In this document: positions 23,721 to 49,820 of the stretch, piece by piece
Position numbering within the stretch: the stretch's first letter is position 1
Layout of the letters: every line of letters starts with the position of its first letter
DNA from: Pseudomonas phage sp. 30-2
DNA length: 64,000 nucleotides
Direction: 5' to 3' (one strand)
Sequence record: LC727697.1
Position numbers and translations under genes: made by a program
The notes under the pieces: generated by a model
Told to the model about the DNA's origin: nothing
Databases searched by the model: none
Seen by the model: the letters and a program-made list of their open reading frames with translations, nothing else

Positions 23721-25940
23721 TTAAACTACAGTTTGGTCTATTTTCTTTTTAGCTTTAGTAGCAGGGGCAATTGCTTGTATAACTACAACTTCGTCTGCTA
23801 CTACCCTGACTTCTGCGTGACCGCCATTTTTAAGATCGCCAAGTAGCATCAGCTTTGACAGCGGCAACTTGACTTTCTCTTGGAACAGCCTCGCGAGCGG
23901 CCGGGCTCCCATCTTAGGATCATATCCATCTGTTGCTAATTTTTGACGTGCTTCTTGGGTAAGGATCAACGATACGCCTTTTTCTAGTACACTTGCTTGC
24001 ACTTTAGCAAACTCAGTGTCTACAATCTTAGACATTTCGTTAATAGTGAGCGCAGAGAACTTAACAATGCCGTCGAGCCTGTTCCGGAATTCAGGCGCAA
24101 ATCCTTTTGTAACTGCGCTATCTATTGCACCGTCGTTAAAATTATTTCCAAATCCAATTGATGCTTTAGCAGCTTGAGCAGCGCCGGAGTTAGATGTCAT
24201 TAGTAGCAAAACGTTACCAAAGAATACAGTTTTGCCAGTTGACGAAGTTAGCCGGGCGTCATCCATCACCTGAAGGAACGTACTAAATACCTTCGGGTGT
24301 GCTTTTTCGATTTCGTCTAGCAACAAGATGCAGTTGGGATTTTTTTCAATCTCAGAGATTAACTGCCCTGCGCCAGCTTCACCTTCGCCGTGCCCTACAT
24401 ATCCGGGCGGCGCGCCCAGCAATCGGGCGACGCTATGCTGTTCTTGGTATTCAGACATATCGAACCGCACTAAAGGAATACCCATATGTTGGGATAGTTT
24501 TTTTGCCAAGAACGTTTTGCCAGTACCGGTCGGACCCACTAATAAGAAGTTACCAATCGGCTTATTGGCATCTCGAAGTCCTGCTTTGTGTACCATTACT
24601 GCTTCGCAGAGCTTGTTAATAGCTTCGTCTTGCCCGAACACATCGTGTTTGAGATTACCTTCTAGACGAGCAATGGTGTCGTTTTCGGTGTTATCCAACA
24701 TTTCCGGACGCATATGAGCTAATTTAGCTACAGTTTCTATGACCATACGCTCGGTAATAGTAGAGATCCCTGCTAATTTAGCTCTGGCGCCGACCAGGTC
24801 TATTGCATCGATTGATTTGTCGGGCTGGTGCCGAGTTTTGATGTATCGTTCGGTCAAATCGACTGCTAGATCTAGAGTCCCTACGTCGTATTTGACGCCA
24901 TGGAACTCTTCGTAATATTGCTTTAATCCGGCAACTATTTTTTTAGTGTCACCTACACTAGGCGGCGGAACATCCACTTTTTGGAACCGGCGCATTAACG
25001 CCCGATCTTTTTCGAAGTGTGTACTATATTCGTCGTAGGTAGTTGCGCCTATGCAACGAAGTGTTCCTTTTGCTAATTCTGGCTTGAGCAGGTTAGCAGC
25101 GTCTACCGACGAGCCATTACTTGCACCAGCGCCCATGATCATATGTATTTCGTCGATGAAGACGATGGCATTTTTCATTGCTTTTAGTTCGTCTAGTAGC
25201 GCTTTCATGCGCTCTTCGAACTCGCCGCGATATTTAGTGCCTGCCATCATCGCGCCGATATCGAGTGAAATAACTTGTTTGTCAGAAATTGCTTCGGGCA
25301 CCTCACCATTGACGATTTTCATCGCCAACCCTTCGGCAATTGCTGTCTTACCCACACCTTCTTTGCCGGTAAGAATGCAATTGTTTTTTCGCCGGCGGGC
25401 AAGGGCTTCGATAACTTCTTCTAGTTCAGTTTCCCGGCCGATAACCGGATCGATTTTGCCCTCAGATACTTCGTCGTTAAGATTGCGAGTAAACGACTTT
25501 ATAAGGGATTCTGCTTCTGCAGATTTCTTCGCTTCAGTTACTACAGCAGTAGTAACACCGTAGTGCGCGAGAAGCTGGCTTGCATTGCAACTGGTGTCTT
25601 TGATGAGTGCATCGAGCATATCGACATACGTCATTGCTTTGTTAGGATCTAATGCAATTTTAGTTGCCAATTGCTGGCACCAGCGACTAAGAGAGGGACT
25701 GATATCAATATTCATATCAGTTATGTGTCGGGATTTTCCCAATTGGGTAACAAGGAAATCAGATACTGCTTTAGTTAATTGATCCGGGTCTGCATTGCAG
25801 TTTTTAACACAGTCCTTTACTTCGTCGTATCCTAATAAAACATATAATACATGATCTGAAGTAATGGCTTCGTGTTGGTGACTTACTGCAAGTTTTTTGG
25901 CTTCAGTAAGTACAGTATTCAGTTTCTTTTGGCTATCCAT
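23721..25940 (-). CDS. clpA: ClpA-like AAA+ unfoldase (Clp_N domain plus two AAA+ modules).
   Basis: 739 aa. N-terminal Clp_N repeat. Walker A motifs ILTGKEGVGKTAIAEG (D1) and LLVGPTGTGKTFLAKK (D2). No ClpB middle domain. IGF docking tripeptide (KASIGFGNNF). The ATG at 25940 was verified. GC content is markedly higher than surrounding genes. Confidence 0.85.
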   Translation of the reverse strand: MDSQKKLNTVLTEAKKLAVSHQHEAITSDHVLYVLLGYDEVKDCVKNCNADPDQLTKAVSDFLVTQLGKSRHITDMNIDISPSLSRWCQQLATKIALDPNKAMTYVDMLDALIKDTSCNASQLLAHYGVTTAVVTEAKKSAEAESLIKSFTRNLNDEVSEGKIDPVIGRETELEEVIEALARRRKNNCILTGKEGVGKTAIAEGLAMKIVNGEVPEAISDKQVISLDIGAMMAGTKYRGEFEERMKALLDELKAMKNAIVFIDEIHMIMGAGASNGSSVDAANLLKPELAKGTLRCIGATTYDEYSTHFEKDRALMRRFQKVDVPPPSVGDTKKIVAGLKQYYEEFHGVKYDVGTLDLAVDLTERYIKTRHQPDKSIDAIDLVGARAKLAGISTITERMVIETVAKLAHMRPEMLDNTENDTIARLEGNLKHDVFGQDEAINKLCEAVMVHKAGLRDANKPIGNFLLVGPTGTGKTFLAKKLSQHMGIPLVRFDMSEYQEQHSVARLLGAPPGYVGHGEGEAGAGQLISEIEKNPNCILLLDEIEKAHPKVFSTFLQVMDDARLTSSTGKTVFFGNVLLLMTSNSGAAQAAKASIGFGNNFNDGAIDSAVTKGFAPEFRNRLDGIVKFSALTINEMSKIVDTEFAKVQASVLEKGVSLILTQEARQKLATDGYDPKMGARPLARLFQEKVKLPLSKLMLLGDLKNGGHAEVRVVADEVVVIQAIAPATKAKKKIDQTVV

Positions 25941-25949
25941 GTGTACCCC

Positions 25950-26639
25950 TTACGAGATTGTGTATGGTTTTGCTTTGTACGTTAGTAGTATACTAGTATC
26001 GCTACTTTTAGTCAAACGAACTTTTGTGAACATGTTGACAGTTATATACAAATGACCTGTTATGGTTTCTAAAATATTGTTTACTGTATATGTATTCTTA
26101 ATACCTTTGTTCTTCACTAGTATTTTAGATCCAGATACAAATGATGTAGGTATACCTACTTTTATCTTATTTCCGTACGGATGCTCAACTATTATTTCTG
26201 TGCCCATAATTATGTCGAGACTTTCTACAGAAATAGTTGCATATACATCTATGCCATTTTGAGCTATAGAAAATGTATCATGTATGAATATTACGGTAAC
26301 TAATAATATAGAATTGTTTACTATTATTATTTTTTGTGAATTATGAGGGAAATGTGGCGGAATTTCTATAATAAATTTATGATTAGCTGTCTTGAATTTG
26401 CCGCCTTTATTTTGGTATTTTAATGGAATATATACTGTATCTGTGTATTGTTCTGTTTTAATAGAAATCCATTTTATTGCATATTCGTATGCTTCCCTTA
26501 CTTGTTTAAACATGTTTTCTGCATCTTTATCTTTATTTCTGTCAGGATGATATTTTGATGCAAGTTTTCTGTATGCAGTCTTTATCTGTTTTTCTGTGGG
26601 ATTAGCAGATACGCCAAGGATTGTTTGCCAATTCTTCAT
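25950..26639 (-). CDS. J-domain (DnaJ-like) co-chaperone.
   Basis: N-terminal J domain with an HPD motif ([47 protein letters not shown]). No G/F or zinc-finger region. 229 aa. Confidence 0.8.
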
Positions 26640-26646
26640 GATAGTT

Positions 26647-26673
26647 AAAGCACTTATCGAAAATAAGTGCTTT
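26647..26673. terminator. Perfect 11-bp-stem hairpin between 26678..27379 and the J-domain gene. Terminator or attenuator.
   Basis: aaagcacttat-cgaaa-ataagtgcttt followed by ttgatta on the plus side. Confidence 0.4.
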
Positions 26674-26677
26674 TTGA

Positions 26678-27379
26678 TTATAATTTGGCTATAATAGGTT
26701 GCTTAGATTGGTGTTGAAGTATTATATATTCGTTTAGTTTATATACTTCCCATTTTTTACCTAAAAATGCCGATAATAAAGCAACATTACTATCTACATT
26801 AGATAGTTCTATAGCACATTCATTTAGTTTTAAACTATTAAATGCTTTTTCGCCTATATACAATGGCTCAAAACTTACTGTTCTATGAGAATTAGATATG
26901 TATATTCTAGAATCATCTATGTGAGCAGAAGATATATCACTGTCAGTAAGCATAGATATTACACTTTCTGTTATTGATGCTTCTTCGTCATCTAGTAATA
27001 TTATATAATCTAATAGTCTTTCGTCATCGTATGGTAGTAATTCGTTACAAAGATATGCTTTAACTAACCAGTCTTGCTTTCCAGACACATTTTCTACATC
27101 TTTTATAATCTTGTAAAATTTTTCAAAGAAGCCTGCTTTTCTTTTTAATTCTACAAATACTAAATAATTTCCGTTTTCGTCGGGATTGGGACTTACATCG
27201 ACATCTAATACTTCTATAAAACTTTTTTCTATAAAATCGTCTAAATCAAACGCAGGGTCTTCGTCAATGGTATAGAATGCAATGACTATAACTTCTTCCT
27301 GTGTTCCAGATTTAGGCATATACTCATCCACCGAAATTATAGGTAATACAGTTCCTTTCAATGAGTGTCTAGCTAACAT
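26678..27379 (-). CDS. Hypothetical acidic protein (233 aa).
   Basis: ORF only. Asp/Glu-rich. Confidence 0.45.
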
Positions 27380-27408
27380 TATATACCCCTTTATAATATG
27401 GAATAATT

Positions 27409-27930
27409 TTATAGATTTCCATCTACATCGTTTATTCCGTTTTCGCCTGCTGCTTCTACATCAGCTATTGCACTAGGATCTATATCATCTACGTTAGAGA
27501 AATCCTGCATGCCATCTATTATTGCTTCGTCTATAAATTTCCTAGGCATAGTTATTGTCACTAACCAAATAGGCAATTCTTCTATTTTTGCTTGCTTAGT
27601 AGCTGGGTTTTCGTAGTCAGGTCTACCTGTTACTTTTTTTGGTTCTAAAAAAACATCCCTTTCGTACTTTACTTTGCAACCGTATTTTAGTAAACGCAAT
27701 CCTGCATCGGGATCTGGCATATCTTTTTCATTGTACATCCAGGTAGTAGTAACCCAATATCTAGAAATAAAGGGTCCGGCAACTAATTCTCCTTTATTCC
27801 AATTTGCATAAGAAAAAACATTACAGTTATCTAATGTTTTTTCTAATTCTATGAGCATATCTAATACTTTATTATTTCCTGCTATTTGAACTAAATTCTC
27901 TCTAGCAGTATCTGCATTGTGTTTGTTCAT
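27409..27930 (-). CDS. Hypothetical protein (~173 aa).
   Basis: The track start at 27942 is a TTG; the ATG at 27930 (MNKHNADTA) is more likely. Confidence 0.45.
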   Translation of the reverse strand: MNKHNADTARENLVQIAGNNKVLDMLIELEKTLDNCNVFSYANWNKGELVAGPFISRYWVTTTWMYNEKDMPDPDAGLRLLKYGCKVKYERDVFLEPKKVTGRPDYENPATKQAKIEELPIWLVTITMPRKFIDEAIIDGMQDFSNVDDIDPSAIADVEAAGENGINDVDGNL

Positions 27931-28014
27931 TTTACTATCCAAATAATATATTATATTTATCTACACATTAATCTTAATATTTAAAATTAGATGTAGATTT
28001 TTCTTAAGTCTTAA

Positions 28015-28022
28015 TGTATAAT
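28015..28022 (+). promoter_or_regulatory. Extended -10 element (TGTATAAT) in the divergent AT-rich region upstream of phoH.
   Basis: TGnTATAAT match with a weak -35 (TAGATT) 17 nt upstream. The same TGTATAAT element occurs on the minus strand upstream of clpP (plus-strand attataca, 39261-39268). Confidence 0.3.
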
Positions 28023-28106
28023 AACACACATAAATAACAATGTAAAGATTAGATCTTTATACATATTATCACACTAAAAATAAGATTTTAACCAGGAGTC
28101 ATACTT

Positions 28107-28880
28107 TTGAAACAACGTGATAAGCGCAAAGCTCGAGCAAGCGAAGGTCCTAACAGTACCTTTCATCTAGTAACTAACAATGTTGTTCAACCGTCTACTA
28201 ATACTAAACAAGTAAGATCTATACAAAGAAAACAAGAAGTTAAGCTAATACCAAAAAGCTTAGCACAAGAAGAATATGTAAACGCATTAGAAGACGATAC
28301 ACAGCACATTGTATTTGCAACAGGTCCAGCAGGATCTGGAAAAACATTACTAGCATCTATGTATGCAATTAAAGCATATAAAGAAGGTAAATGCGATAAG
28401 ATTGTAATTACTAGGCCAGCAGTATCAGTAGACGAAGAACACGGTTTTTTGCCAGGCACGCTAATAGATAAAATGGCTCCTTGGGTAATACCAATAATGG
28501 ATGTGTTTAAAGAATATTATTCCCCTGTCGAAATAGAACAAATGCTTATGGAAGAAATTATAGAAATTGCTCCCCTTGCATATATGAGAGGCAGAACATT
28601 TAAAAATTGTGTTATATTAGCAGACGAAATACAGAATACAACGCCTAACATGTCTAAAATGCTTTTTTCAAGAATAGGTGAGAATTGTAAAATGATAGTC
28701 ACTGGCGATATAGAGCAACACGATCGGGGCTTCGAAATAAATGGACTAAAAGATTTCTTAGAAAGACTCGATAAAGCAGGCGGCAATAAACACATAAGTG
28801 TCATTAAATTTACTTCAAAGGATATTAAACGTCATCCACTGATTGAAGATATTTTAGAAATGTATAAGGACATTAATTAA
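28107..28880 (+). CDS. phoH: PhoH-like ATPase.
   Basis: Walker A motif VFATGPAGSGKTLLA. PhoH signature PLAYMRGRTFKNCVILADEIQNTTP. TTG start at 28107 with an AGGAG RBS 7 nt upstream. A strong terminator follows. Confidence 0.85.
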   Translation: MKQRDKRKARASEGPNSTFHLVTNNVVQPSTNTKQVRSIQRKQEVKLIPKSLAQEEYVNALEDDTQHIVFATGPAGSGKTLLASMYAIKAYKEGKCDKIVITRPAVSVDEEHGFLPGTLIDKMAPWVIPIMDVFKEYYSPVEIEQMLMEEIIEIAPLAYMRGRTFKNCVILADEIQNTTPNMSKMLFSRIGENCKMIVTGDIEQHDRGFEINGLKDFLERLDKAGGNKHISVIKFTSKDIKRHPLIEDILEMYKDIN

Positions 28881-28883
28881 ATA

Positions 28884-28910
28884 AAAGGGGCATATGCCCC
28901 TTTTATTTTG
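28884..28910 (+). terminator. Rho-independent terminator of phoH.
   Basis: aaagggg-catatg-cccctttt-attttg directly after the stop. Confidence 0.75.
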
Positions 28911-28925
28911 TCTAATTATTAAACC

Positions 28926-28960: not shown

Positions 28961-28962
28961 TG

Positions 28963-29911: not shown

Positions 29912-29912
29912 A

Positions 29913-30855: not shown

Positions 30856-31182
30856 TTAATTATAAACTCGTGTTTCTACTATTATATTGTCTTCTGGCTC
30901 TTCATCGGATATCAATAAAATAGAATCTATTTCAGCACAGTAATATACATTTTGCTCTGTAGTGTGTACTGGACGGGACCAGCGACCGTGCTTAATTAAC
31001 ACCCATTGGCCTACAACAAATGTATCTTTTTGATCTTCTCTTATATGGGATACTTGTGCCCACCGAGCGCGGATGCCGTGTGACTTACCGTTATCATCTG
31101 TAAAAATAATACCGCCTACAGTGCGTTCGCCTTTTTTAAAATTAGTTACAATAATGTTGTTATGAAGTGGTATTATATTCAT
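30856..31182 (-). CDS. GroES/Cpn10-like co-chaperonin (T4 gp31 analogue).
   Basis: The N-terminus MNIIPLHNNIIVTNFKKGERTVGGIIFT parallels GroES [28 protein letters not shown]. The C-terminal half is divergent. Confidence 0.55.
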   Translation of the reverse strand: MNIIPLHNNIIVTNFKKGERTVGGIIFTDDNGKSHGIRARWAQVSHIREDQKDTFVVGQWVLIKHGRWSRPVHTTEQNVYYCAEIDSILLISDEEPEDNIIVETRVYN

Positions 31183-33110: not shown

Positions 33111-33611
33111 TTAGCTGCGTCCGGAAAAGTGCTTGAGCCAGTCGTCCAACTCATCTTCACTAGCATCGGCAACTGTTTGCCGTTTTGAATCCGAACTACT
33201 AGTACCTACTAGGACTTGTTCTCCGGACTTATATGCTTCCGTCTCTGCTAGCTGTCGCTCTAGGTTCTCTCGGAGCACAGCAGCAGAAACAGCTCGGTAA
33301 GTAGACGGTTTGCCAGTTAGTTCTAACTCAACTAGGCCGAAGGTCATAATCCCTATCAAGCCACGGAGAAAAAATGCAGCGTTGAGCCACATAGTATTTC
33401 GCCAATGAATTAGATGATGCTTAGTAAAACGAATACTGCAAATTTTTTCCTTTAATTCGGCGAAAAAATATTTCAGTCGCAATACTCGCATTTTACGAGC
33501 AATAGCTTTTTTCTCTTTTTCCCCGATTACCTTGCGGTGCGCTAGTGGATCTGCATTTGCATCGGTAGCTTGGGTATTTACAGAAGTATTTTTTTGGTTC
33601 ACAGTTGCCAT
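33111..33611 (-). CDS. Hypothetical membrane-anchored protein on a GC-rich island.
   Basis: One TM helix (MWLNAAFFLRGLIGIMTFGLV). Local GC is about 50% versus about 30% background. A terminator hairpin lies downstream. Confidence 0.5.
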   Translation of the reverse strand: MATVNQKNTSVNTQATDANADPLAHRKVIGEKEKKAIARKMRVLRLKYFFAELKEKICSIRFTKHHLIHWRNTMWLNAAFFLRGLIGIMTFGLVELELTGKPSTYRAVSAAVLRENLERQLAETEAYKSGEQVLVGTSSSDSKRQTVADASEDELDDWLKHFSGRS

Positions 33612-34264: not shown

Positions 34265-34518
34265 GTTCTTTCTGATATTCCATTAATAAATATATATGGA
34301 TATTTTATCCTAGCTATTATTTCAGATTCGGGTGAATTAAAATAAAATACTTCGTATCGTTCACCGTCTTTAAACGTGTCGTGCCACCCTATATCACTTC
34401 TAAATTCAGTAAATAGCCATTTTCTAATTTTTCTTGTATTATTATAATCAGATTTAATTGTAATTTTTAGCATCTTTCTTTTCAAAAAGTTGCCTAAGGT
34501 TTCAGTGACAAAATCCAC
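34261..34518 (-). CDS. Hypothetical small protein.
   Basis: 4-nt ATGA-type overlap with its neighbour. Confidence 0.4.
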   Translation of the reverse strand: MDFVTETLGNFLKRKMLKITIKSDYNNTRKIRKWLFTEFRSDIGWHDTFKDGERYEVFYFNSPESEIIARIKYPYIFINGISERT

Positions 34519-34778
34519 GAATCTAGAAATTTTTTATAAATAATTTCATCACTAGCAGTAGCAAATGATGCATCTATATTTGATTGATCCCTTAAATTTA
34601 CTATATGAGTACGCCCATATTTTGTTAGAATTTCTATTCTAATTTTTCCAGATATAAAAGAAACTACATACTCTTCTGTGGATTTCTGGTACTTAACTTC
34701 AGCAATTGTGTTTAGTGGTATTATTGTTGAGTCTTCCGTGACTAATACTTTCATTCCCTTACCTTTTATTATAAACAA
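34494..34778 (-). CDS. Hypothetical small protein.
   Basis: Overlapping small ORF. Confidence 0.4.
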   Translation of the reverse strand: MFIIKGKGMKVLVTEDSTIIPLNTIAEVKYQKSTEEYVVSFISGKIRIEILTKYGRTHIVNLRDQSNIDASFATASDEIIYKKFLDSWILSLKP

Positions 34779-35038
34779 AGTTTTATTAGAACAAGAATAT
34801 GTTCAGCATCCATGTCGGTATTGTACACACGAACCGGAAACGGCTTTTTAGTTCTAACAAACCGGGCAGAACGCTGCGAGAGAATCCGTTTAATAGAATA
34901 CCGCGGCGATCCTGCCGACCAATTTTTTCTGCCATGACCAAACTGACTGTTCATAAAAGAAACAAATTTATTAAACTGCTCAACGTCGTCGAAGTCGATT
35001 TCGAACTTAACATCCTTGGCGTTGCTGTTCGTAGACAT
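34769..35038 (-). CDS. Hypothetical small basic protein (GC-rich).
   Basis: ORF with elevated GC. Overlaps the previous ORF by 10 nt. Confidence 0.4.
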   Translation of the reverse strand: MSTNSNAKDVKFEIDFDDVEQFNKFVSFMNSQFGHGRKNWSAGSPRYSIKRILSQRSARFVRTKKPFPVRVYNTDMDAEHILVLIKLCL

Positions 35039-38541: not shown

Positions 38542-39213
38542 TTACTTCAGGTCAGCTTTAGTGCGGAATACTTTGTCTGCCAACCCGAACTCAACTGCTT
38601 CTTGAGCAGAGAGGAATGTGTCGAATTTCATAATTTCGATAAATTCGTCGAACGTCTTGCCAGCAGTGTTATGATGAACATACAGCTCAGTGAGACGCTT
38701 GTTAATTTTAGATAGTTCTGCCGCATGGCGGACAGCATCTTCAATTCCTAACTCAACTTGTTGAGTTGTGCCGCCGAATCCCCCGAAGCCGCCGCTGGCT
38801 CGATGAATCATAGTGCGGGATTCGCTAGACACGTAACGATGCCCCGGAGTACCTGCTTGTGCTAGGAAAGACCCCATACTGCATGCTTGGCCCAACACGA
38901 TGGTATTAACGGGACACGAAATATATTCCATCGTGTTATAAATAGACAAACCAGCAGTAACGCTGCCGCCCGGAGAGTTAATATACATCGAAACGGGCTG
39001 TTCTGCCGATTCCGATTCGAGGAAAAGAAGCTGGGCAACAATTACGGATGCCATCTCGTCGCGAACTGGACCATTAAGAAAAACAATACGCTCTTTTAGA
39101 AGACGGGAATAAATATCCCAACTACGTTCGCCGTTGCCGTTATTTTCGACAACCATGGGGATCAAACCAGCTTCGGTAGGATATTGTCCTTGTGCTGTAT
39201 AATTGTAGCTCAT
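38542..39213 (-). CDS. clpP: ClpP serine protease subunit.
   Basis: Active-site Ser context [14 protein letters not shown] and His context MIHRASGG. 223 aa. GC-richer than background. The ATG at 39213 was verified. Confidence 0.85.
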
Positions 39214-41273: not shown

Positions 41274-42644
41274 TTATTTTATATCTTTGCTAGAATCTGC
41301 TTCAAATTTATCTGTTCTTATTTCTAAAAATCTAGGAAGAAAAAGAGAATCAACACCTATTCGGTCTACGCTTTTAATTCTTTCATTATACATAACACTC
41401 ACTATGCTATGTTTCCATTTATTTTCAAAATTTGCTGTTGCATCATCGCGTTCGCTGTCAGTTAAACCAGATATGTTGACTATTACCTTACCGTCTGAGC
41501 TTTCACATATTAATGATCCAACTTTATGTTCTGTTTTAGTACCTACTGTTCCGTAATTAAACCCAGTTACAATTAATTCGCATACTTTTTCTGATTTATA
41601 TTTTAATACTAACTTACTTCGTTTATTTTCCCATATACTATCAGGACATTTTACCATTATGCCTTCTTCGTTTCTAGATATTGCTTCGTCGAAGAAGATT
41701 TTTACTTCCTCTTTGCTATAAAGGAGACGAGTTTCTGCTAACCTAATTTGCCCTATATTTCCTAAAATAGTATTATATATTTTACTTTCTATATAATCAT
41801 CATCTACTTGCAATTTATGTATTGCATTTGATAAACTTTCGAATCTACTAGAATAGGGTGTAGTGCATTTATGTTCATTAAAACATCTAAGAGGAATACA
41901 ATCCCAAAGAATTGCTCTTACATTCTTTATTTCATTATCTGTAATGGTATCACTTTGTGCTTTACTTATGATACCGTTTCCTGTCCGTCTGGGGAGTATA
42001 TTATTATTAGAATCTACAACTATTAATTCGCCATCAAAAACCATATCTTCGTCGAAATATTTAATTAGCGAAACAAATGCGTCATCTAAAATATCTTTAA
42101 AATCGTATGATTTACCCGATCTTCCATAAAATGAAACAATTCCGGATTTACTAACATGAATATTAATTCTAGTTCCGTCTGATTTTATCTGAGAATAATA
42201 TGGTAACTTGCATTTACTAAGAAGATTTTCTGTTGCAGGTTCTGCTAGCAAGCACGGATATTTAGGTACTAGATCCTTCCATATTTTATTAACTGTAGCA
42301 TCTTGTATCCCTGCGCGTAAATCCTTTCTAATAATCCGGATAATTACATTTGCATCGTCATCTGTTAAACTAGAAAGAATATATGTTAGATGCAATATTG
42401 CGGCATTACCTGTTTTTATTCTATCAGATAGAACAGATAATTCGGTTAGTGCTTGTTCTAAGGTAAGAATAGTATCTGTTCGCGTGAATTCTGGTATTTT
42501 CTTTATATAAAAGTTAATAAATGGATTTAATGCCAAATGTATTACTTTTTTTAATGTGTCATTATCCTTGTTTCTTTCTAGAATAGCTAATTTAGTAGTT
42601 CGTTTAGTAGTATTTCCGATTTCGTCTAAAATTGTACGAATCAT
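41274..42644 (-). CDS. ATP-dependent DNA ligase.
   Basis: Adenylation motif I KSDGTR (KxDG). 456 aa with nucleotidyltransferase plus OB-fold organisation. Confidence 0.75.
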   Translation of the reverse strand: MIRTILDEIGNTTKRTTKLAILERNKDNDTLKKVIHLALNPFINFYIKKIPEFTRTDTILTLEQALTELSVLSDRIKTGNAAILHLTYILSSLTDDDANVIIRIIRKDLRAGIQDATVNKIWKDLVPKYPCLLAEPATENLLSKCKLPYYSQIKSDGTRINIHVSKSGIVSFYGRSGKSYDFKDILDDAFVSLIKYFDEDMVFDGELIVVDSNNNILPRRTGNGIISKAQSDTITDNEIKNVRAILWDCIPLRCFNEHKCTTPYSSRFESLSNAIHKLQVDDDYIESKIYNTILGNIGQIRLAETRLLYSKEEVKIFFDEAISRNEEGIMVKCPDSIWENKRSKLVLKYKSEKVCELIVTGFNYGTVGTKTEHKVGSLICESSDGKVIVNISGLTDSERDDATANFENKWKHSIVSVMYNERIKSVDRIGVDSLFLPRFLEIRTDKFEADSSKDIK

Positions 42645-42671: not shown

Positions 42672-44402
42672 TTATGCAAGAACTTGTTCTACTTCTGCAC
42701 AATCTATTGTTTCTTTTTCCATTAACAAGTCTGCTACAAGTTTTAATTCAGCCTTTTTATCCGAAAGTAATGTTATGGCCTTATTGTACGCATCTTTTAC
42801 TAGAATTGCTGCATCTTGTTCTGCACTAGATTGCAAACTAGACAGGGTCGATGTCGCAACCGGTCCTATACTACCGAAACCACACGATGTAGTCATGTAT
42901 ACTGCAAGTTCGGTTGCTCTCTTTATATCTGAACTAGCGCCAGTGGATATTGCAGATTCACCGTATATGAGTTCTTCTGCTGCGCGGCCTGCCATTAACG
43001 TAACTAATTTATTCATGAGCTGCTCTTTGCTAACAGAAGGCTCTTCGTTAGGAAGAAATACAGTTACACCTAGTGCTAGACCTCGAGGAATGATAGATAC
43101 TTTATGCAAGTTATCATTAGATTTGTAAATTACACCCGATATTGCATGACCGGCTTCATGATATGCAGTACGAAGCAATTCTTCTTGGGTATATTTCTTT
43201 GTCGAATTTTCACCCATTAACACCTTATCTTTTGCTCGTTCTACATGCTCCTGGGTAATTACAGTTTGCCCAGACCTTACTGCATAGATTGCAGCCTCAT
43301 TGACTAGTTTAGCTAACTCAGCACCAGAGAATCCCGGAGTTCCTTTTGCTATTACTGAAAAATCTACATTGTCTTCAAATGTTTTTCCATTTGCATTTAT
43401 TTCTAAAATCTTCTGTCTAATCCCCACATCAGGTAAACTTAGTTGAACAATTCTGTCAAATCGTTTAGGACGAATAACAGCCGGGTCTAATATATCTAGT
43501 CTATTAGTAGCTGCAAGAATTGTAATACCATCGTTATCTTGCATTCCATCCATTTCTACTAATAACTGATTGAGTGTTTGGTCTGATCCATTAGATATTT
43601 TAGTAGAACGTTGCTGTGCAAGTGCATCAATTTCGTCTATGAAAATAATGCACGGCGCAGCTTCCTTTGCTTTTTTAAACATATCTGTTACACGGTTTGC
43701 ACCTACACCGACAAATGTATCATTAAACTCAGATCCAGCAACATAGAAAAAATTAACATTTGCCTCTTTTGCCATTGCCTTTGCTAAAAGTGTTTTCCCG
43801 ACGCCCGGACTGCCGTGCATTAGAATTCCACGAGGCACATCTATTCCCATGCTAGAATACTTAGTTCGATGAGCAATAAAATCAACTAACTCTTTTACTT
43901 CATTTATTTCGTGAGTATGGCCAGCTACATCGTTAAACGTTACTTCAATGTCTTTTGGTTCTATCTTGCGAAGTTTGGATTTACTTTTTGCATCTAATGA
44001 AGAACCAGGACCTATTCGCTTCAAAACGAATACCATTAAAATTAAAAATACTAACATTACTATAAGTCCAGACACCAAACTAGTAAGGAATGGACTAGGG
44101 GTAGAAGGTTCTTCGGTTACTACAGGAACACCTGCTTTAAGAAATGATTCTATTAATTTACTGGTATCTCCGGGGAATGTTACTTTTCTTCTGTCTGATG
44201 TATTAGTAACATACTGTAGTGTTTGTCCATCTTCTTTTAATTTAACACTAATTATTTTACCGCTCGTTGCGTCTGATAAAAAGGTGTTTATAGACACACT
44301 AGTCGGCTTGTAATTAATCGTTAACGCAAGTCCAGTTATGCATATTACAAGAAATAAAATAATAAATCTGTTATTTTTTATGAACTTAACAATATGTTGC
44401 AT
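42672..44402 (-). CDS. ftsH: FtsH-like membrane-anchored AAA+ zinc metalloprotease.
   Basis: Two N-terminal TM helices. Walker A GSPGVGKTLLAKAMA. SRH TNRLDILDPAVIRPKRFDR. HEXXH zinc site YHEAGHAI. The ATG at 44402 was verified. Confidence 0.85.
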   Translation of the reverse strand: MQHIVKFIKNNRFIILFLVICITGLALTINYKPTSVSINTFLSDATSGKIISVKLKEDGQTLQYVTNTSDRRKVTFPGDTSKLIESFLKAGVPVVTEEPSTPSPFLTSLVSGLIVMLVFLILMVFVLKRIGPGSSLDAKSKSKLRKIEPKDIEVTFNDVAGHTHEINEVKELVDFIAHRTKYSSMGIDVPRGILMHGSPGVGKTLLAKAMAKEANVNFFYVAGSEFNDTFVGVGANRVTDMFKKAKEAAPCIIFIDEIDALAQQRSTKISNGSDQTLNQLLVEMDGMQDNDGITILAATNRLDILDPAVIRPKRFDRIVQLSLPDVGIRQKILEINANGKTFEDNVDFSVIAKGTPGFSGAELAKLVNEAAIYAVRSGQTVITQEHVERAKDKVLMGENSTKKYTQEELLRTAYHEAGHAISGVIYKSNDNLHKVSIIPRGLALGVTVFLPNEEPSVSKEQLMNKLVTLMAGRAAEELIYGESAISTGASSDIKRATELAVYMTTSCGFGSIGPVATSTLSSLQSSAEQDAAILVKDAYNKAITLLSDKKAELKLVADLLMEKETIDCAEVEQVLA

Positions 44403-44442
44403 TATTTGATCCTATAAGGGGTTATGTGTGTAATATAACTGT

Positions 44443-45117
44443 TTACCGCTTATATGTAAATAGTTTTAAAAGTTTCTCTATAGACTCCATTATTGTATCG
44501 TACCAAAATAATACTACAGTTGTAGATAGTTTTTGCATAGATATATTTTCACATTTTTCGTTTATACAATCTTCTAATGTTTTGAGTATTACCACGCAAT
44601 TAATCACGTTTATTATCATACTGCCTATACAATAACTGACTGATAAATCTAATAGTATAGACATTACTATGGTCACAAGCAAAGTCATTGCTATAGAAAC
44701 ATTAAATGACGACGCGAAACTAAAAATGTTTTTTGACATAATTGCGTTTGCACAAAGAAACATATATAAAAACGAACTTATAGTAAACATAACTAAAACT
44801 AATAATGGCGCTACTTCCCCCAGTAACGCAGTTAATCCATTCCCTAATGTTATTCCTTGCCAAAATAATAAAAATACACTCCCTACAATAGACACATACA
44901 CATTTGTTCTAATACAATCTATAATAAACATTATAGCAAAATATGAAAATATACACACAAGTAAATTCATATTAAGAATTGGCATAGTTAATGCTAAATA
45001 TGCGCCGGCGGCTGCAAATATTCTAGTTAACATTAAAGTTGCAAATGTTCCTATTATAGATTTCTGTTCATTTGTTTTAAGTTCCAATTTTATCTCCTTA
45101 TAAAACAATCCCCGCAA
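44443..45117 (-). CDS. Polytopic integral membrane protein (5-6 TM), immediately upstream of FtsH.
   Basis: Multiple hydrophobic segments. 41 nt from the FtsH start with no intervening terminator. Confidence 0.5.
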   Translation of the reverse strand: MRGLFYKEIKLELKTNEQKSIIGTFATLMLTRIFAAAGAYLALTMPILNMNLLVCIFSYFAIMFIIDCIRTNVYVSIVGSVFLLFWQGITLGNGLTALLGEVAPLLVLVMFTISSFLYMFLCANAIMSKNIFSFASSFNVSIAMTLLVTIVMSILLDLSVSYCIGSMIINVINCVVILKTLEDCINEKCENISMQKLSTTVVLFWYDTIMESIEKLLKLFTYKR

Positions 45118-45133
45118 TTGCGGGGATTGTTTT
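45102..45133 (-). terminator. Palindromic terminator overlapping the stop of 45133..45360.
   Basis: aaaacaatccccgc-aatt-gcggggattgtttt. Confidence 0.7.
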
Positions 45134-45360
45134 TACTCTTCTTCGATTACCACAGGCATTTCTTTTTCTAATTTCTTTAACTGTGCTTCTGTTTGTTTAT
45201 CTAACATTTCTTCAGAAATATTAACATATGCCTTTTTAAAGTGTTCTAAACAATATGCTTTTCCTTCTATAGGTTTTGCTCCGCATTGTGTTTTAGAATT
45301 TCCTTTCCATTCACACTGTTTAGCTCTATATACTCCAAAAGTAAAATCAAATGTTTTCAT
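45133..45360 (-). CDS. Hypothetical small Cys-containing protein.
   Basis: ORF with CxxxxxxC...C..H spacing. A terminator hairpin overlaps its stop. Confidence 0.4.
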   Translation of the reverse strand: MKTFDFTFGVYRAKQCEWKGNSKTQCGAKPIEGKAYCLEHFKKAYVNISEEMLDKQTEAQLKKLEKEMPVVIEEE

Positions 45361-45427
45361 TTATAATCCTTATTACGTCATGCGTTTGTGTCGATCTTCA
45401 AGCTTCTTGTTGCAAAAGCTATCCATA

Positions 45428-45721
45428 TCAGTCTGTATATAAATCTTGTATTATTAATAATTGTTTATTATTTTGTAATGTTTCTTTTATTAAATGTTCT
45501 AAGTTAATAGTTTCCGAATAATTAGTATGCCAGTGATATGGTTTAGTTGGTTTAATTTGTTCACAAACATAAATTACATATTGGTCTATAGGTTGAGTTA
45601 TAGAATATGGTTTTATATTGCGTAAAATATCTTTATAAAATACCACACTAACTGTTACAGATACACCATTTCTTTTATTGATTACTGTGTAATCTTTTCC
45701 AATAGTGTGTATATCTATCAT
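45428..45721 (-). CDS. Hypothetical protein.
   Basis: ORF only. Confidence 0.4.
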   Translation of the reverse strand: MIDIHTIGKDYTVINKRNGVSVTVSVVFYKDILRNIKPYSITQPIDQYVIYVCEQIKPTKPYHWHTNYSETINLEHLIKETLQNNKQLLIIQDLYTD

Positions 45722-45730
45722 TTATTTGCA

Positions 45731-46015
45731 TTACCTGTCATGAAATAGAATTGTGTTACCCTTATAGGTAGATACGTATACTCCTAATAAATCTTTAAAC
45801 AATAACGAATTAGCCCAACACTCTGGACCTTCGCCCCACATAATAGCTGCATCAGCTTTTACATATTTATGAATTTGTTTTTTCGACAATACTTTAATAC
45901 CGTTTGGATTAAATCCTGCTTGCTTGGCAAATTCCTTTAATTCAAATGCCATGTGTTGTGCAGTTTCATAAGATAAAGAAAAGAGGCATTCATCCCAATG
46001 CTTTTTAGTTCTCAT
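45731..46015 (-). CDS. Hypothetical protein.
   Basis: ORF only. Confidence 0.4.
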   Translation of the reverse strand: MRTKKHWDECLFSLSYETAQHMAFELKEFAKQAGFNPNGIKVLSKKQIHKYVKADAAIMWGEGPECWANSLLFKDLLGVYVSTYKGNTILFHDR

Positions 46016-46034
46016 AAGTATTCACCGAAGTTAT

Positions 46035-46583
46035 TTATTGAGAATACATACCCTCCAGATATTCCCAATTAAATATATTCCATATATTCTCGTAGTATGA
46101 CTTCTTGTCTGCTTTATAATCGAGCATATATGCATGCTCCCAACAATCAATAAGTAAGAATATATCGTCTCTTACTTCGTGATTTGGGATTTCCTTTATT
46201 ACAAGGGTATTAGAAACATAAATCCATCCAGAACCATGAACATCCATACATGCAGATATAACCTCATTTTTAAATTTAGAAAATGAAGTAAATTTAGATT
46301 TTATATCTTTTAATAATATCCCGGAAGGAGAATATCTTTTTTGAGAATCAGTAAATTGACTAAAATAAATCCCATGCAAGTATGCACCTGCAAATGAAAA
46401 TTTATTACTAGGGTCTTTGTTTACTGAAGATATGTAATTAGAATATAGTGTTCCGTAATGTAGTTCTACTAAATCTTTAGAGAAAGTAGGACTAAGACTA
46501 CTTACGGAATACGGGATAGGAATTTTCTTTACGGACGATGCAGCTTCTGCAATAGATATGTATTTCTTTATGGAATCATTCAT
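46035..46583 (-). CDS. Fe/Mn-type superoxide dismutase.
   Basis: C-terminal signature DCWEHAYMLDYKADKKSYYENIWNIFNWEY (compare [28 protein letters not shown]). The candidate metal ligands (H in ELHY, H in AYLHG, D and H in DCWEH) are present. Confidence 0.75.
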   Translation of the reverse strand: MNDSIKKYISIAEAASSVKKIPIPYSVSSLSPTFSKDLVELHYGTLYSNYISSVNKDPSNKFSFAGAYLHGIYFSQFTDSQKRYSPSGILLKDIKSKFTSFSKFKNEVISACMDVHGSGWIYVSNTLVIKEIPNHEVRDDIFLLIDCWEHAYMLDYKADKKSYYENIWNIFNWEYLEGMYSQ

Positions 46584-46657
46584 AATTCTTATATCCCTAT
46601 ATGCTTTATTTATTATAATAGGGAAGGGGGCAGGTGTCTACCCCCGTTTTTGCTGTA

Positions 46658-46993
46658 TTACGATTCTTCTACAGTTACTTTAAAATCAGGATAACCGTTG
46701 TTAATGGCAAGTTGAACAGATTTAGACTGTTTCGATTCTGCAATTTCTTTTGTATAGCTGCCTACAATCTTTGCGCCGCGTTCATGCACTTCCATCATTG
46801 TATTGTATGCGCTAGATGCATCGTAGTCATATATATATACTAACAATTGCATAACAAATTCCATAGTGGTTTTGTTATCGTTGTGAAAAACTACATTATA
46901 TTTCTTAGGTTGAAATACAGTAGACGAAGTTTCAACTTTATTAGCTACCTTTACAGTCATTTTTAAATCCCAAGTTGATCGTAATTGATACAC
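46658..46993 (-). CDS. clpS: ClpS N-degron adaptor.
   Basis: YNVVFHNDNKTTMEFVMQLLVYIYDYDASSAYNTMMEVHERGAKIVGSYTKEIAESK is collinear with E. coli ClpS [57 protein letters not shown]. Confidence 0.8.
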   Translation of the reverse strand: MYQLRSTWDLKMTVKVANKVETSSTVFQPKKYNVVFHNDNKTTMEFVMQLLVYIYDYDASSAYNTMMEVHERGAKIVGSYTKEIAESKQSKSVQLAINNGYPDFKVTVEES

Positions 46994-47040
46994 ATTATTA
47001 TATATGTTTAAACAGTGTCGTCAAGTTATATAGCAAAAAT

Positions 47041-47066
47041 AAAAAGCTGGAATACCAGCTTTTTAT
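47041..47066 (-). terminator. Terminator downstream of the sHSP gene.
   Basis: aaaaagctgg-aata-ccagcttttt. Confidence 0.7.
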
Positions 47067-47075
47067 TTGTAAACA

Positions 47076-47507
47076 TTATTCTATATCAATTACTTTTCGT
47101 TGTGATTCTGCAGGACTCGGCGGTTGAATTTTTATTGTTAGAATGCCATTTTTCATACCGCACGAAGATATATTTATAAGATCGTCTACAAGCCTGAATT
47201 TGACAGAAAAATCTTTACTAGAAATACCTTTGTGTTCGTATTCTACTTCAGTTTTAAAAATTCGTTCCGGTTTTGTTTCTATTACTAACAGTCGTTCTCT
47301 GCTATCTACATAAACATCTAGCTCGGATTTATCATAACCGGCAAGAGCTAATTCAAGACAATAGCTACCGTCTGCATTCTTTATCAAATTATGGGGAGGA
47401 AACTTCTGGCTACTAAGTTCATTAGTAATAGTATTAAGTAAATCAGTTGCACCTAGTGCATATCTATAATTAGCTAGGTTAGATGACATTATAACATGTT
47501 TTTGCAT
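47076..47507 (-). CDS. Small heat-shock protein (Hsp20/alpha-crystallin family).
   Basis: Alpha-crystallin domain features (DGSYCLELALAGYDKSELDVYVDSRERLLVIE...NGILTIKI). 143 aa. A terminator lies downstream. Confidence 0.75.
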   Translation of the reverse strand: MQKHVIMSSNLANYRYALGATDLLNTITNELSSQKFPPHNLIKNADGSYCLELALAGYDKSELDVYVDSRERLLVIETKPERIFKTEVEYEHKGISSKDFSVKFRLVDDLINISSCGMKNGILTIKIQPPSPAESQRKVIDIE

Positions 47508-47590
47508 TTTTAATCTCCTTTACGCAAGATATAGTGTGAGCCCAATAAGGCACTCGTTGTATAGTATTCCTCATGGAATACTAATGTTAT

Positions 47591-48061
47591 TTATCTTTTA
47601 AATGTTGACTTATACGTTTCATATATAGCAGAATTGTTTTCGTGTTCCCATATTTCTATACTATGGACCCAACATCTTCCGCCAGAATGTTTTTCTATAA
47701 TGGGATTTAAATAGTCAAACAGATGCTTACATGAACCTTCTATTCCGGGACCATGGCCTTTTTTAACATCCATTATATTTAATTTAACTAGACCTTCTTG
47801 TTCCATTTGTTTAAGGATATTTAACTTGGGATCATCAGATGCAACTAAAACATTATGATCCCATTGTTCTTCCAACCATTTCCTAAAATCTTTCAATCCA
47901 CCAAAATCTACTACCCACATTTTATCATCTAATGTAGTAGCAGAAAAAACAATCTTCACTGTTCTTCCATAGCCGTGTATTCTACTGCAATGACCTGTAT
48001 CTTTCCATTGACGATGGCCAGTGGAAATAGGTCCAAATCTCTTAGTTGAAAAATATGCCAT
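47591..48061 (-). CDS. QueD/6-pyruvoyl-tetrahydropterin-synthase-family paralog with an altered zinc motif (HGY).
   Basis: GHCSRIHGYGRT where PTPS/QueD have CxxxHGH. The N-terminal His is retained. Confidence 0.6.
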   Translation of the reverse strand: MAYFSTKRFGPISTGHRQWKDTGHCSRIHGYGRTVKIVFSATTLDDKMWVVDFGGLKDFRKWLEEQWDHNVLVASDDPKLNILKQMEQEGLVKLNIMDVKKGHGPGIEGSCKHLFDYLNPIIEKHSGGRCWVHSIEIWEHENNSAIYETYKSTFKR

Positions 48062-48062
48062 A

Positions 48063-48398
48063 TTAAATTATTAATCCGCAATAAATGCATTTTTCTGCAT
48101 CTGTATTTGTATGATAATTAGTATTGTGATACACAAACTTATGATTGCAATACCGACGGATATACTGCATAGTTTTATCTATACAGATTATACGTTGTTC
48201 AAGTCTACTGCATTCGGATATAGCATCTTTATACGATTGGAGCTGTTCTATATCCATTTTTATGCTGGAAATAAGTAAAGAATCTGCAGGATCTGCAGGG
48301 ATGTCAACTTTATCCAATTGCCGTAGGCTATAATAGAGTTTATTCCTACGATTTCTGCAAAACATAAGTTCATTATTTAAAATCCTGCAAAGGTCCAT
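48063..48398 (-). CDS. Hypothetical Cys-rich protein.
   Basis: ORF with CxxC-like pairs (CSRLEQRIICID...CIYCG). Confidence 0.4.
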   Translation of the reverse strand: MDLCRILNNELMFCRNRRNKLYYSLRQLDKVDIPADPADSLLISSIKMDIEQLQSYKDAISECSRLEQRIICIDKTMQYIRRYCNHKFVYHNTNYHTNTDAEKCIYCGLII

Positions 48399-48400
48399 TA

Positions 48401-48607
48401 TTATATTTTTTTCTTTTTCTGGCGTTGAATTGCTGCTTTTTTAGCTTTTGTCTTTTTTACAGAAGGCTTTTCATAGAATTCGCGTTCTCGAACTTCTTTT
48501 AATTTTCCTGAATTTTGAACCTTTTTAGTAAAAGTTCTAAGTGCTTGGTTAAAGTTATCGTGTCTTACTTCTACAGTAAGACCAGTAATTATATTAAATG
48601 TCTTCAT
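48401..48607 (-). CDS. rpsU: Ribosomal protein S21 homolog.
   Basis: GKLKEVREREFYEKPSVKKTKAKKAAI matches the bacterial S21 core ([29 protein letters not shown]). 68 aa, basic C-terminus. The ATG at 48607 was verified. It overlaps the ClpX start by 14 nt. Confidence 0.75.
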   Translation of the reverse strand: MKTFNIITGLTVEVRHDNFNQALRTFTKKVQNSGKLKEVREREFYEKPSVKKTKAKKAAIQRQKKKKI

Positions 48608-49820
48608 TTTGCCCTTTTATGAAATTATGTTTTCCTAGTTCGTGTATAATAATCTTGCTAAACCCTTCTCGTCTTATAGAAGGCAATCTATATGCTATAC
48701 TAGATAGTTCTTTTTCTAAAATAGTTCTTAAACCACGAGCGCCTGTTTTCCTATTAAACGCTGTAGTAGCAACAGATTTTATAAAATCTTCATCGAATTC
48801 TAATTCAATGTTATCTAATTTAAACATAGTTTGATATTGTTTAAGTATAGAACTTTTAGGCTCTACTAGAATTCGACGAAGCATAGTCTCTGTTACATCA
48901 TGAAACGCAATAAGAACAGGAAATCTCCCTACAAATTCTCTTATAAAACCGTATGTATACAAATCTTCCGGTTCTACATAGAATAAACTACCTTCTATGG
49001 GTTTACCAGCTTCTGAACCAAATCCCATTTGAGATTTAGTAGAACTAAGTCTTTTATTTATTACTGCATCCAGTCCTATAAATGCGCCGCCAACTATAAA
49101 CAAAACGTTAGTTGTGTCAAACATAATTTCCTGCCTAGGACTAAACATACTGTTAGAATTTAGTTCTAATTTAATCGTTGTTCCTTCTAACACCCGAAGT
49201 AAAGACTGTTGAACACCCTCGCCGGAAACATCAGATCCTGCAGAATTTGTTCCTTTTTTAGAACGCTTCTTATCTATTTCATCTATAAATACGATTCCAC
49301 GTTGCGCTAGTTCTATGTCACCATTTGCTTCTGCGATTAATCTAGTAAATATAGTCTCTACATGATCGCCGACATATCCTGCCTCTGTTAGCGAAGTAGA
49401 ATCTACAGAAACAAAAGGTATGTTTAACAATTTAGATATACTAGATATTAAAAATGTCTTACCGCTGCCTGAAGGTCCCAGTAGCATTATGTTAGATTTA
49501 GATAACTCTACATCATGTTCAGTAGTGTTATAGTTTACCCGTTTATAATGATTATACACTGCTAGACTTAGTAATTCTTTTGCGTGATCTTGCCCTACAA
49601 TGTCTTTATCTAGCAATTCCTTTAGTTCTTCAGGTGTGTATTTTATTTCTAATTTATTAGATTCCCGATCATTTGTTTCAGCAGTTTCTAAAAAATTGTT
49701 GCACTGAGTTACACACTGGTCACATATATATACATTTGATCCATATTTAGCAGGGCTACGAAACAACTTAGACACATCATCTTTGCCTTTATTGCAATAA
49801 GAGCATGTTTCTTTCGACAT
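48594..49820 (-). CDS. clpX: ClpX AAA+ unfoldase.
   Basis: N-terminal C4 zinc finger (CSYCNKGKDDV...ICDQCV). Walker A LLGPSGSGKTFL. MGF variant of the IGF ClpP-docking loop (QMGFGSE). 408 aa. Confidence 0.85.
   Translation of the reverse strand: MSKETCSYCNKGKDDVSKLFRSPAKYGSNVYICDQCVTQCNNFLETAETNDRESNKLEIKYTPEELKELLDKDIVGQDHAKELLSLAVYNHYKRVNYNTTEHDVELSKSNIMLLGPSGSGKTFLISSISKLLNIPFVSVDSTSLTEAGYVGDHVETIFTRLIAEANGDIELAQRGIVFIDEIDKKRSKKGTNSAGSDVSGEGVQQSLLRVLEGTTIKLELNSNSMFSPRQEIMFDTTNVLFIVGGAFIGLDAVINKRLSSTKSQMGFGSEAGKPIEGSLFYVEPEDLYTYGFIREFVGRFPVLIAFHDVTETMLRRILVEPKSSILKQYQTMFKLDNIELEFDEDFIKSVATTAFNRKTGARGLRTILEKELSSIAYRLPSIRREGFSKIIIHELGKHNFIKGQNEDI

Follow-up and report, generated by a model that had tools for sequence, protein, structure and literature searches.

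The 64,000-nucleotide stretch of Pseudomonas phage sp. 30-2 analysed here (LC727697.1; hereafter the window) encodes a set of proteases and chaperones consisting of ClpA and ClpX as AAA+ unfoldases, the ClpP peptidase, the ClpS adaptor, the membrane protease FtsH with a polytopic membrane protein beside it, a J-domain protein, a GroES-like protein and a small heat-shock protein. This set was probably passed down as a module from an ancestor shared by a broad clade of jumbo phages, most of them uncultured, and its Clp proteins would on paper make up a self-sufficient protease set, with two unfoldases that carry docking loops, a ClpP with an intact catalytic triad and a ClpS that keeps both its substrate pocket and its contacts to ClpA. 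Both statements belong to a single explanation, which we favour with moderate confidence.

Positions 23000 to 47000 of the window matched ten Pseudomonas jumbo phage genomes of the genus Wroclawvirus over the whole length at 98.7-99.0% nucleotide identity. Matches named were Deifobo (99.0% identical), Cassandra, Ettore and Paride (OR805292-5), PA5oct (NC_071039/MK797984), MIJ3 (LR588166), PAC2 (PP408249), 30-3 and Callisto, and by this measure the window is judged to be one more isolate of a known, cultured genus (PA5oct/MIJ3/Paride/Deifobo group). Its GC content was 34.8% and nearly all of its genes lie on the minus strand, including all eight quality-control genes named in a preliminary description of the window, each of which was recovered in place (Table 1). 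That description had called the genes dispersed, whereas the eight, together with the membrane protein gene, fall within 26 kb of a genome of approximately 287 kb and are therefore clustered. Host contamination as a source of the genes was rejected, since the region occurs in ten independent phage genomes and has a GC content of 35%. The GC content of the P. aeruginosa genome is approximately 66%.

Table 1. Genes of the protease and chaperone region of the window and selected neighbours, with the basis of each assignment (aa, amino acids; ORF, open reading frame)
Feature	Length (aa)	Coordinates	Strand	Basis
ClpA-type double-ring AAA+ unfoldase	739	23721..25940	-	Pfam, NCBIfam, E. coli ClpA alignment, PHROG 4871
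J-domain co-chaperone	229	25950..26639	-	Pfam DnaJ 3e-17, DnaJ_C 5e-7
Divergent GroES/Cpn10-like (T4 gp31-like) co-chaperonin	108	30856..31182	-	Pfam Cpn10, family profile, PHROG 931
ClpP peptidase (S14)	223	38542..39213	-	Pfam CLP_protease, PDB alignment
FtsH membrane AAA+ zinc metalloprotease (M41)	576	42672..44402	-	Pfam, NCBIfam, motifs
Polytopic membrane protein		44443..45036 (ORF to 45117)	-	Directly upstream of ftsH, co-oriented; hydropathy
Fe/Mn superoxide dismutase-like protein		46035-46583	-	Sod_Fe_C 1.2e-21, weak N-domain; between FtsH block and clpS
ClpS N-degron adaptor	100	46658..46960	-	Pfam ClpS 1.1e-21
Hsp20/IbpB-like small heat-shock protein	143	47076..47507	-	Pfam HSP20
Two QueD/PTPS paralogues and GTP cyclohydrolase I (FolE), flanking clpX		47591-48061, 49838-50356, 50424-51113	-	
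Ribosomal protein bS21		48401..48607	-	Pfam Ribosomal_S21 1.1e-15, PHROG 21469
ClpX unfoldase	408	48594..49820	-	Pfam, NCBIfam equivalogs, PDB alignment

Relatives of the region were noted on a large number of uncultured viral contigs in IMG/VR, where more than 574 stretches matched ClpP (62-69% identity), more than 597 matched ClpA and 75 loci matched ClpX. Gene order was compared by local tblastn of the window proteins against 244 fetched loci, with non-self loci counted. Two blocks were conserved in dozens of these loci, namely FolE-QueD-ClpX-bS21-Hsp20-ClpS-(superoxide dismutase)-ligase-(RNase T)-ClpP and GroES-clamp loader (RFC)-PhoH (opposite strand)-DnaJ-ClpA. Among non-self loci, bS21 stood beside ClpX in 37, and the corresponding counts were 41 for ClpS, 36 for Hsp20, 42 for PhoH and 20 for the GroES-like protein, the gene for which adjoined that of the clamp loader in 20 of the related loci. 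ClpP proteins nearest to that of the window (66-69% identity) were on marine metagenome contigs of up to 207-335 kb, with genes arranged as in the window (ligase ... RNase T exonuclease - opposite-strand ORF - ClpP). The closest ClpA relatives, also on viral contigs, were 50-54% identical; the nearest of these (54%) was encoded, as in the window, downstream of a PhoH gene on the opposite strand and of a DnaJ gene, and adjacency of DnaJ and ClpA was kept in loci L006, L007 and L094. One 113-kb contig, 3300033066_001786 (loci L094 and L231), carried the whole set including FtsH, with identities of 49% for ClpX, 44% for ClpS, 42% for FtsH (591 aa, in the same slot), 61% for ClpP, 43% for the GroES-like protein and 50% for ClpA, as well as genes for bS21, Hsp20, RNase T and DnaJ. 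Since this gene order is kept in dozens of uncultured viral contigs, the set would predate the present phage and its slots would be ancestral.

Families were assigned from Pfam, NCBIfam and PHROG profiles, alignment to sequences in the PDB and a hydropathy scan. In Pfam, the ClpA protein matched Clp_N (30.4 bits against a gathering threshold of 20.7), AAA, AAA_lid_9, AAA_2 (2.8e-52) and ClpB_D2-small (9.5e-21), and its residues 138-714 aligned to E. coli ClpA (1ksf) with 606 bits. The pore loops KYR and GYVG were present, and SIGFGNN (IGF) lay over SIGLIHQ (IGL), the ClpP-docking loop of the E. coli protein. Such an IGF or IGL docking loop in D2 is a feature of ClpA that is not found in ClpB. 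Among NCBIfam models the best was likewise ClpA (TIGR02639; 791.5 bits, spanning model positions 2-733 of 734), ahead of ClpB (646 bits), although the score was below the cut-off of 993. These matches mark the protein as a divergent member of the ClpA family and bear out the Clp_N domain, two AAA modules and IGF loop claimed for it earlier. ClpX, described with a C4 finger and an MGF loop, was equally clear. Its Pfam matches were an N-terminal zf-C4_ClpX (2.3e-10) and AAA_2, which forms the only AAA+ module, it exceeded two NCBIfam equivalog cut-offs (NF003745, 455.7 against 359; TIGR00382, 415.9 against 370.75), and in alignments with PDB sequences the finger residues Cys6, Cys9, Cys33 and Cys36, the pore loop GYVG and MGF at the IGF position were all aligned.

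The ClpP protein matched CLP_protease at 8.1e-60 over model positions 2-181 of 182, and GQACSMG, MIHR and KFDTFLS lay over the Ser, His and Asp of the catalytic triad in solved ClpP structures, in agreement with the Ser and His contexts reported before. The N-terminal axial-loop region was also kept, and the NCBIfam equivalog score (213) was below the cut-off (309). An insertion of 10 residues was noted in the handle region, just past the catalytic His (residues ~133-150). It was common to ClpPs of marine-type viral and metagenome contigs and lacking from the ClpPs of L231 and E. coli, and it marks a distinct phage ClpP subfamily. ClpS, the presence of which was also upheld, aligned without gaps to E. 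coli ClpS and kept N34, D35, T38, M40 and H66 as well as E79 and K84; its NCBIfam score was 64 against an equivalog cut-off of 143. From published structures, we take N34, D35, D36, T38, M40 and H66 to form the N-degron pocket and E79 and K84 to be the contacts with ClpA.

FtsH agreed with its earlier description as a membrane protease with transmembrane helices, an AAA module, HEAGH and a co-oriented polytopic neighbour. Matches to FtsH_ext, AAA (3.1e-42), AAA_lid_3 and Peptidase_M41 (3.3e-45) were obtained in Pfam, the sequence contained HEAGH, FVGVG and SRH, and the hydropathy scan gave hydrophobic transmembrane segments at residues 13-31 and 109-127, on either side of the periplasmic domain. 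The score against NCBIfam FtsH_fam (548 bits) was slightly under the cut-off of 600. With FtsH alone as query, a scan of IMG/VR gave two matches at 42%, both on short contigs, and the syntenic FtsH of L231 came from the local tblastn. The strongest non-self match to FtsH, P0242 (880 aa), was set aside as uninformative, as it proved to be a double-AAA FtsH from a bacterium, with ExbBD/TonB genes as its context. In PA5oct, FtsH was reported to be transcribed throughout infection. The neighbouring membrane protein had approximately 5-7 hydrophobic segments and a sub-threshold match to Pfam Bax1-I (E 2.8e-4, 21.2 bits against a gathering threshold of 34.1), whereas NCBIfam and PHROG gave no match and a search of PDB sequences only a chance one (E 0.5). 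A single-sequence AlphaFold2 model with seven helices had a predicted local distance difference test score of 48 and was unreliable. The PA5oct and PAC2 records label this protein "FtsH-interacting integral membrane protein", and it may be BI-1/YccA-like, that is, of a family of FtsH modulators. On its other side (41274-42644), FtsH is neighboured by a DNA ligase gene, as identified in Pfam.

Two of the three chaperone calls were straightforward. The J domain of the J-protein carries HPD (KYHPDRN), as previously claimed. No cysteine, and hence no zinc finger, and no G/F region were found in its sequence, and the protein was far under the cut-off for all NCBIfam DnaJ equivalogs; it consists of a J domain and a DnaJ_C-like C-terminal domain and is not a DnaJ orthologue. 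The Hsp20 call also stood, with scores of 2.9e-10 for Pfam HSP20 (40.6 bits against 20.8), 2.7e-25 for PHROG 432 and 9.6e-20 for NCBIfam IbpB, the last of these below cut-off. Judged by its profile scores, the GroES-like identification is the weakest of the eight gene calls. Its Pfam Cpn10 score of 21.6 bits, against a gathering threshold of 21.1, was marginal and covered only the N-terminal two thirds of the protein. Support came from a 16-member family profile that matched 13 GroES/Cpn10 chains of the PDB (best 4.3e-5) and had no other match below E 0.1.

Searches by tblastn for DnaK and GroEL indicated no homologue of either in the Wroclawvirus records, as judged from organism and host tallies of the matches, which left no room for ten such records. 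With no Hsp70 or Hsp60 of the phage, the J-protein and the GroES-like protein would have to act on DnaK and GroEL of the host, and recruitment of host Hsp60 and Hsp70 by phage co-chaperones has been proposed from a survey of 224 jumbo phages (PMC7824862). Marine relatives with the best ClpP matches (L003-L005, 11912-12621) were noted to have genes for Cpn60/GroEL and RtcB within a few kb of clpP. Since GroEL occurs in these relatives and not in Wroclawvirus, the chaperone complement appears to vary within the clade.

The preliminary description was correct in that clpA and clpP are GC-rich. GC content at third codon positions (GC3) was 0.415 for clpA and 0.442 for clpP, exceeding the mean for 70 ORFs (0.244, standard deviation 0.057) by approximately 3 and 3.5 standard deviations, and these two genes were the strongest outliers among them. 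Two small ORFs on the minus strand were also outliers, one of 166 aa at 33111-33611 (0.371) and one of 89 aa at 34769-35038 (0.433). The former corresponds to PA5oct gp199, which is flagged as a structural protein by electrospray ionization tandem mass spectrometry (ESI-MS/MS). Relative to the GC content of their loci, clpA and clpP of relatives differed by only +0.004 and +0.026, so the excess is specific to Wroclawvirus.

From such differences several independent captures of host genes had been suggested, recent for clpA and clpP and old for clpX, clpS and ftsH, all from bacterial sources. This account would explain why clpA and clpP stand out in GC3 and why their excess is not seen in relatives, and an ultimate bacterial origin is likely given that FtsH relatives with readable context were mostly gammaproteobacterial (approximately 43% identity). 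As a history of the whole set it is nevertheless highly improbable in our view, because positions and gene order are kept across dozens of uncultured viral contigs, the closest relatives of ClpP (66-69%) and ClpA (50-54%) are on viral contigs, the ClpP insertion is common to viral-type metagenome contigs and not present in E. coli ClpP, and a GC3 of 0.42-0.44 is far from the GC content of P. aeruginosa. Replacement in place is a reading that we entertain only tentatively, whereby the slots are ancestral but clpP of Wroclawvirus, and perhaps clpA, was swapped for the allele of a distant phage with approximately 41-47% GC. Loci with the best ClpP matches (63-69%) had distant FolE (34-36%), ClpX (39%) and ligase (25-36%), while loci with the closest FolE (53-58%) and ClpX (45-49%) had ClpP of only 54-61% identity. 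The handle insertion is likewise common to the distant group and lacking from the closest relative, L231, and genes of matching composition were found in clpP of L003-5 (GC 0.467, GC3 0.44) and clpA of L090 (GC 0.451, GC3 0.437). Against replacement, no sampled donor is close (68% amino-acid identity), ClpP may simply evolve at different rates between lineages, the contigs that best match clpA include the closest overall relative, L094, and hence reveal no incongruence for that gene, and the comparison is one of identities rather than trees. For clpP, at least, the GC excess fits a swap with the allele of another phage, not fresh capture from a bacterium.

With regard to function, we infer complexes, substrates and physiological role from the proteins encoded. 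Phage ClpX and ClpA would unfold selected host and phage proteins and pass them to phage ClpP, with ClpS steering ClpAP to substrates that have bulky N-terminal residues. FtsH, together with its small polytopic membrane partner, would handle membrane and regulatory proteins, while the co-chaperones would recruit host folding machines for more than 450 phage proteins. The net effect would be turnover of the proteome, freeing amino acids, plus support for folding, and the module could keep working after host gene expression is shut off or in a starved host. Two other functions were weighed. In one, ClpP acts as the prohead (head-maturation) protease, and the assembly of capsid and tail is all that the chaperones serve. 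ClpP belongs to PHROG 94, "head maturation protease", bears the same label in RefSeq and was among the proteins seen by ESI-MS/MS when virions were analysed, PHROG 931 ("head morphogenesis") takes in the GroES-like protein, and roles of phage ClpA and ClpX in virion assembly have been suggested (PMC7824862). The protein is, however, a full-length canonical ClpP, which scored 236 bits against ClpP models but 89 against the model for ClpP-related head-maturation proteases (cut-off 120), it is accompanied by matched docking-loop unfoldases and ClpS, clpP lies among genes of replication and nucleotide metabolism rather than head genes, and PA5oct has a separate prohead protease of the T4 type (gp152). 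A role of ClpP purely in head maturation is thus unlikely, and the assembly-only view of the set as a whole is very improbable. In the other, the proteases are mainly a device for counter-defence or takeover by which chosen host proteins, defensive or regulatory, are destroyed. That the virus directs the degradation of specific proteins, as put forward in the preliminary description, is plausible in itself, and the altered specificity suggested by loss of the RKH motif from ClpX and by D36N in ClpS, along with an argument that phage peptidases of patchy distribution, ClpP and ClpS among them, act on host proteins (PMC7824862), would accord with it. Broad conservation and fixed synteny in marine and freshwater relatives fit housekeeping better than an arms race, and counter-defence as the main purpose seems doubtful.

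Several observations weigh against the explanation that we favour, namely a self-sufficient Clp set of ancestral origin. The N-domain of ClpA is weakly conserved (12 bits against E. coli), although E23 is retained. The RKH motif was not found in phage ClpX on alignment with PDB sequences, the reference GGRK-HPQQE being replaced by SNSMFSPRQE. The RKH loop of E. coli ClpX is needed for recognition of the ssrA tag, and its loss, taken with this role, suggests that the phage protein does not recognise ssrA tags in the manner of its E. coli counterpart. ClpS differs from that of E. coli in the change of D36 to N, and the handle insertion of ClpP makes the predicted assembly into a tetradecamer, and activation by ClpX or ClpA, uncertain. 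As ClpA, ClpP, FtsH, ClpS and Hsp20 were all below NCBIfam equivalog cut-offs, these proteins are by that standard divergent and could have changed partners or specificity. The GC3 excess of clpA is not accounted for by the explanation. Finally, ClpP and FtsH are flagged by ESI-MS/MS in the PA5oct annotation, as are all of its 93 virion-linked proteins. This detection also counts in favour of the explanation, but their presence in virion preparations could reflect a structural or injected role, or contamination.

Compared with the ClpXP, ClpAPS and FtsH systems of E. coli and P. aeruginosa, the window proteins have the same domain architectures, pore loops, IGF-type loops, ClpP triad, FtsH HEXXH, and ClpS N-degron pocket and ClpA-contact residues. 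They differ in the ClpX, ClpS and ClpP changes just described and in an FtsH that, at 576 aa, is shorter at its C-terminus. T4 gp31 and phage Hsp10, together with cyanophage Hsp20, resemble the co-chaperones of the window in being small proteins of large myoviruses that are thought to use host GroEL (PMC7824862); the window differs in that its co-chaperones are part of a larger conserved block that also holds AAA+ proteases.

The gene inventory was already known, as all of the genes are named in GenBank. Annotations of PA5oct and PAC2 list ClpA, DnaJ, chaperonin, ClpP, FtsH, FtsH-interacting integral membrane protein, ClpS, Hsp20 and ClpX. Labels in the RefSeq record NC_071039 are misleading, with ClpA and ClpX named "porphyrin biosynthesis" and ClpP "head maturation protease", names that are attributed to transfer of the labels of PHROG 249 and PHROG 94. 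Papers on MIJ3 and PA5oct highlighted FtsH and TilS as host-like, and Clp proteins and chaperones are absent from both texts. For Atu_ph07, a section on ClpX, ClpA, ClpB, ClpP and ClpS noted that DnaJ adjoins ClpA and that ClpA is conserved in Rak2-like phages, and proposed roles in clearance of aggregates, control of replication and assembly (PMC6102473). ClpP, ClpS, ClpA, ClpX, DnaJ, Hsp10 and Hsp20 were all listed in the survey of 224 jumbo phages (PMC7824862).

Occurrence in other phages was surveyed by tblastn against 50,697 phage records, with host-contaminated "phage" records not taken as phage occurrences. Many "phage" records, for example Listeria phage LM 4-14-1, Acinetobacter phage MD-2021a and Pseudomonas phage Y6, were observed to be short or multi-contig assemblies with host genes such as ftsH, clpX-clpP, dnaK and groL at host-like identity, and these inflate the apparent counts of phage-encoded chaperones. 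ClpA-like genes were present in 193 records (121Q/PBECO4 group, Atu_ph07, Phosso, SCTP-2 and others), ClpX in 128 (including Atu_ph07, Phosso, phage G and Lak phages), ClpP in 146 and ClpS in 18. FtsH was found among genuine phage records only in Wroclawvirus and Microcystis phage MaAM05, and additionally on one IMG/VR contig. The Clp set, though uncommon, is thus not restricted to Wroclawvirus, and it is FtsH that is rare. Other Wroclawvirus genomes showed essentially no difference from the window, ClpA, ClpP, ClpS and ClpX being 99.3-100% identical as proteins and FtsH 99.0-99.8%. Atu_ph07 and Phosso, like the window, encode all four of ClpX, ClpA, ClpP and ClpS, at identities of 43-44%, approximately 43%, 55-57% and approximately 34%, respectively, and in Atu_ph07, as in the window, DnaJ is directly beside ClpA. 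In contrast with the window, Atu_ph07 also has ClpB, its Clp genes are spread over 490 kb rather than gathered in 26 kb, and no FtsH homologue was found in it by tblastn, whereas the window has FtsH and its membrane partner. The earlier view that the combination is unusual was therefore overstated, the same genes being present in ten Wroclawvirus genomes and the Clp set in Atu_ph07 and Phosso, with FtsH alone being rare.

Among neighbouring genes, that for bS21 is a conserved neighbour of clpX and its product not a quality-control protein. The two genes overlap by 14 nt, with bS21 starting within the 3' end of clpX, which, together with the recurrence of the two genes side by side, suggests a conserved and possibly translationally coupled pair. 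The order FolE-QueD-ClpX was also kept in relatives, and from the known roles of these enzymes we take the QueD/PTPS and GTP cyclohydrolase I genes near clpX to represent a 7-deazaguanine (queuosine-precursor) pathway lying within this block. The superoxide dismutase-like gene was in the same place in 5 related loci, and its PA5oct counterpart, gp223, carries the ESI-MS/MS flag. An ORF at 34494-34778 (minus strand) is annotated in PA5oct and PAC2 as "polyubiquitin-like protein" and had no Pfam match at E <= 0.01, and a 94-aa ORF at 45731-46015 (minus strand) gave a weak, sub-threshold match to the metallopeptidase toxin domain Tox-MPTase3 (E 3.5e-4, 21 bits against a cut-off of 25).

As sets of this kind are already treated in work on other jumbo phages, the inventory as such adds nothing. 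The additions are modest and consist of the conserved module, the linkage of ClpX and bS21, the ClpP subfamily marked by the insertion, and a possible link to dormancy. Given the hundreds of IMG/VR contigs with relatives of ClpP and ClpA, self-encoded AAA+ proteolysis would be a stable part of the lifestyle of these phages rather than a curiosity. Apart from Paride, Cassandra, Deifobo and Ettore, no phage was recovered that replicates on P. aeruginosa in deep dormancy. Growth of the Paride group on dormant hosts needs host RpoS and (p)ppGpp, and the authors suggested that the phage mobilises stored resources; their paper leaves the mechanism open and its text does not contain Clp, FtsH or chaperones. 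The proteolysis and chaperone module beside phage bS21 is a candidate for this trait, though offered only as a hypothesis. By this proposal, to which we assign a low probability, phage ClpXP or ClpAPS and FtsH, possibly with co-transcribed bS21 and the co-chaperones, would enable lytic growth in P. aeruginosa that is starved and deep-dormant, through the breakdown of stationary-phase proteins and the release of amino acids, and the block would be an adaptation of the clade to slow-growing hosts. The module is not confined to this group and occurs in many relatives. If true, the link would bear on the way in which a virus taps a dormant cell for resources and on phage therapy against antibiotic-tolerant infections.

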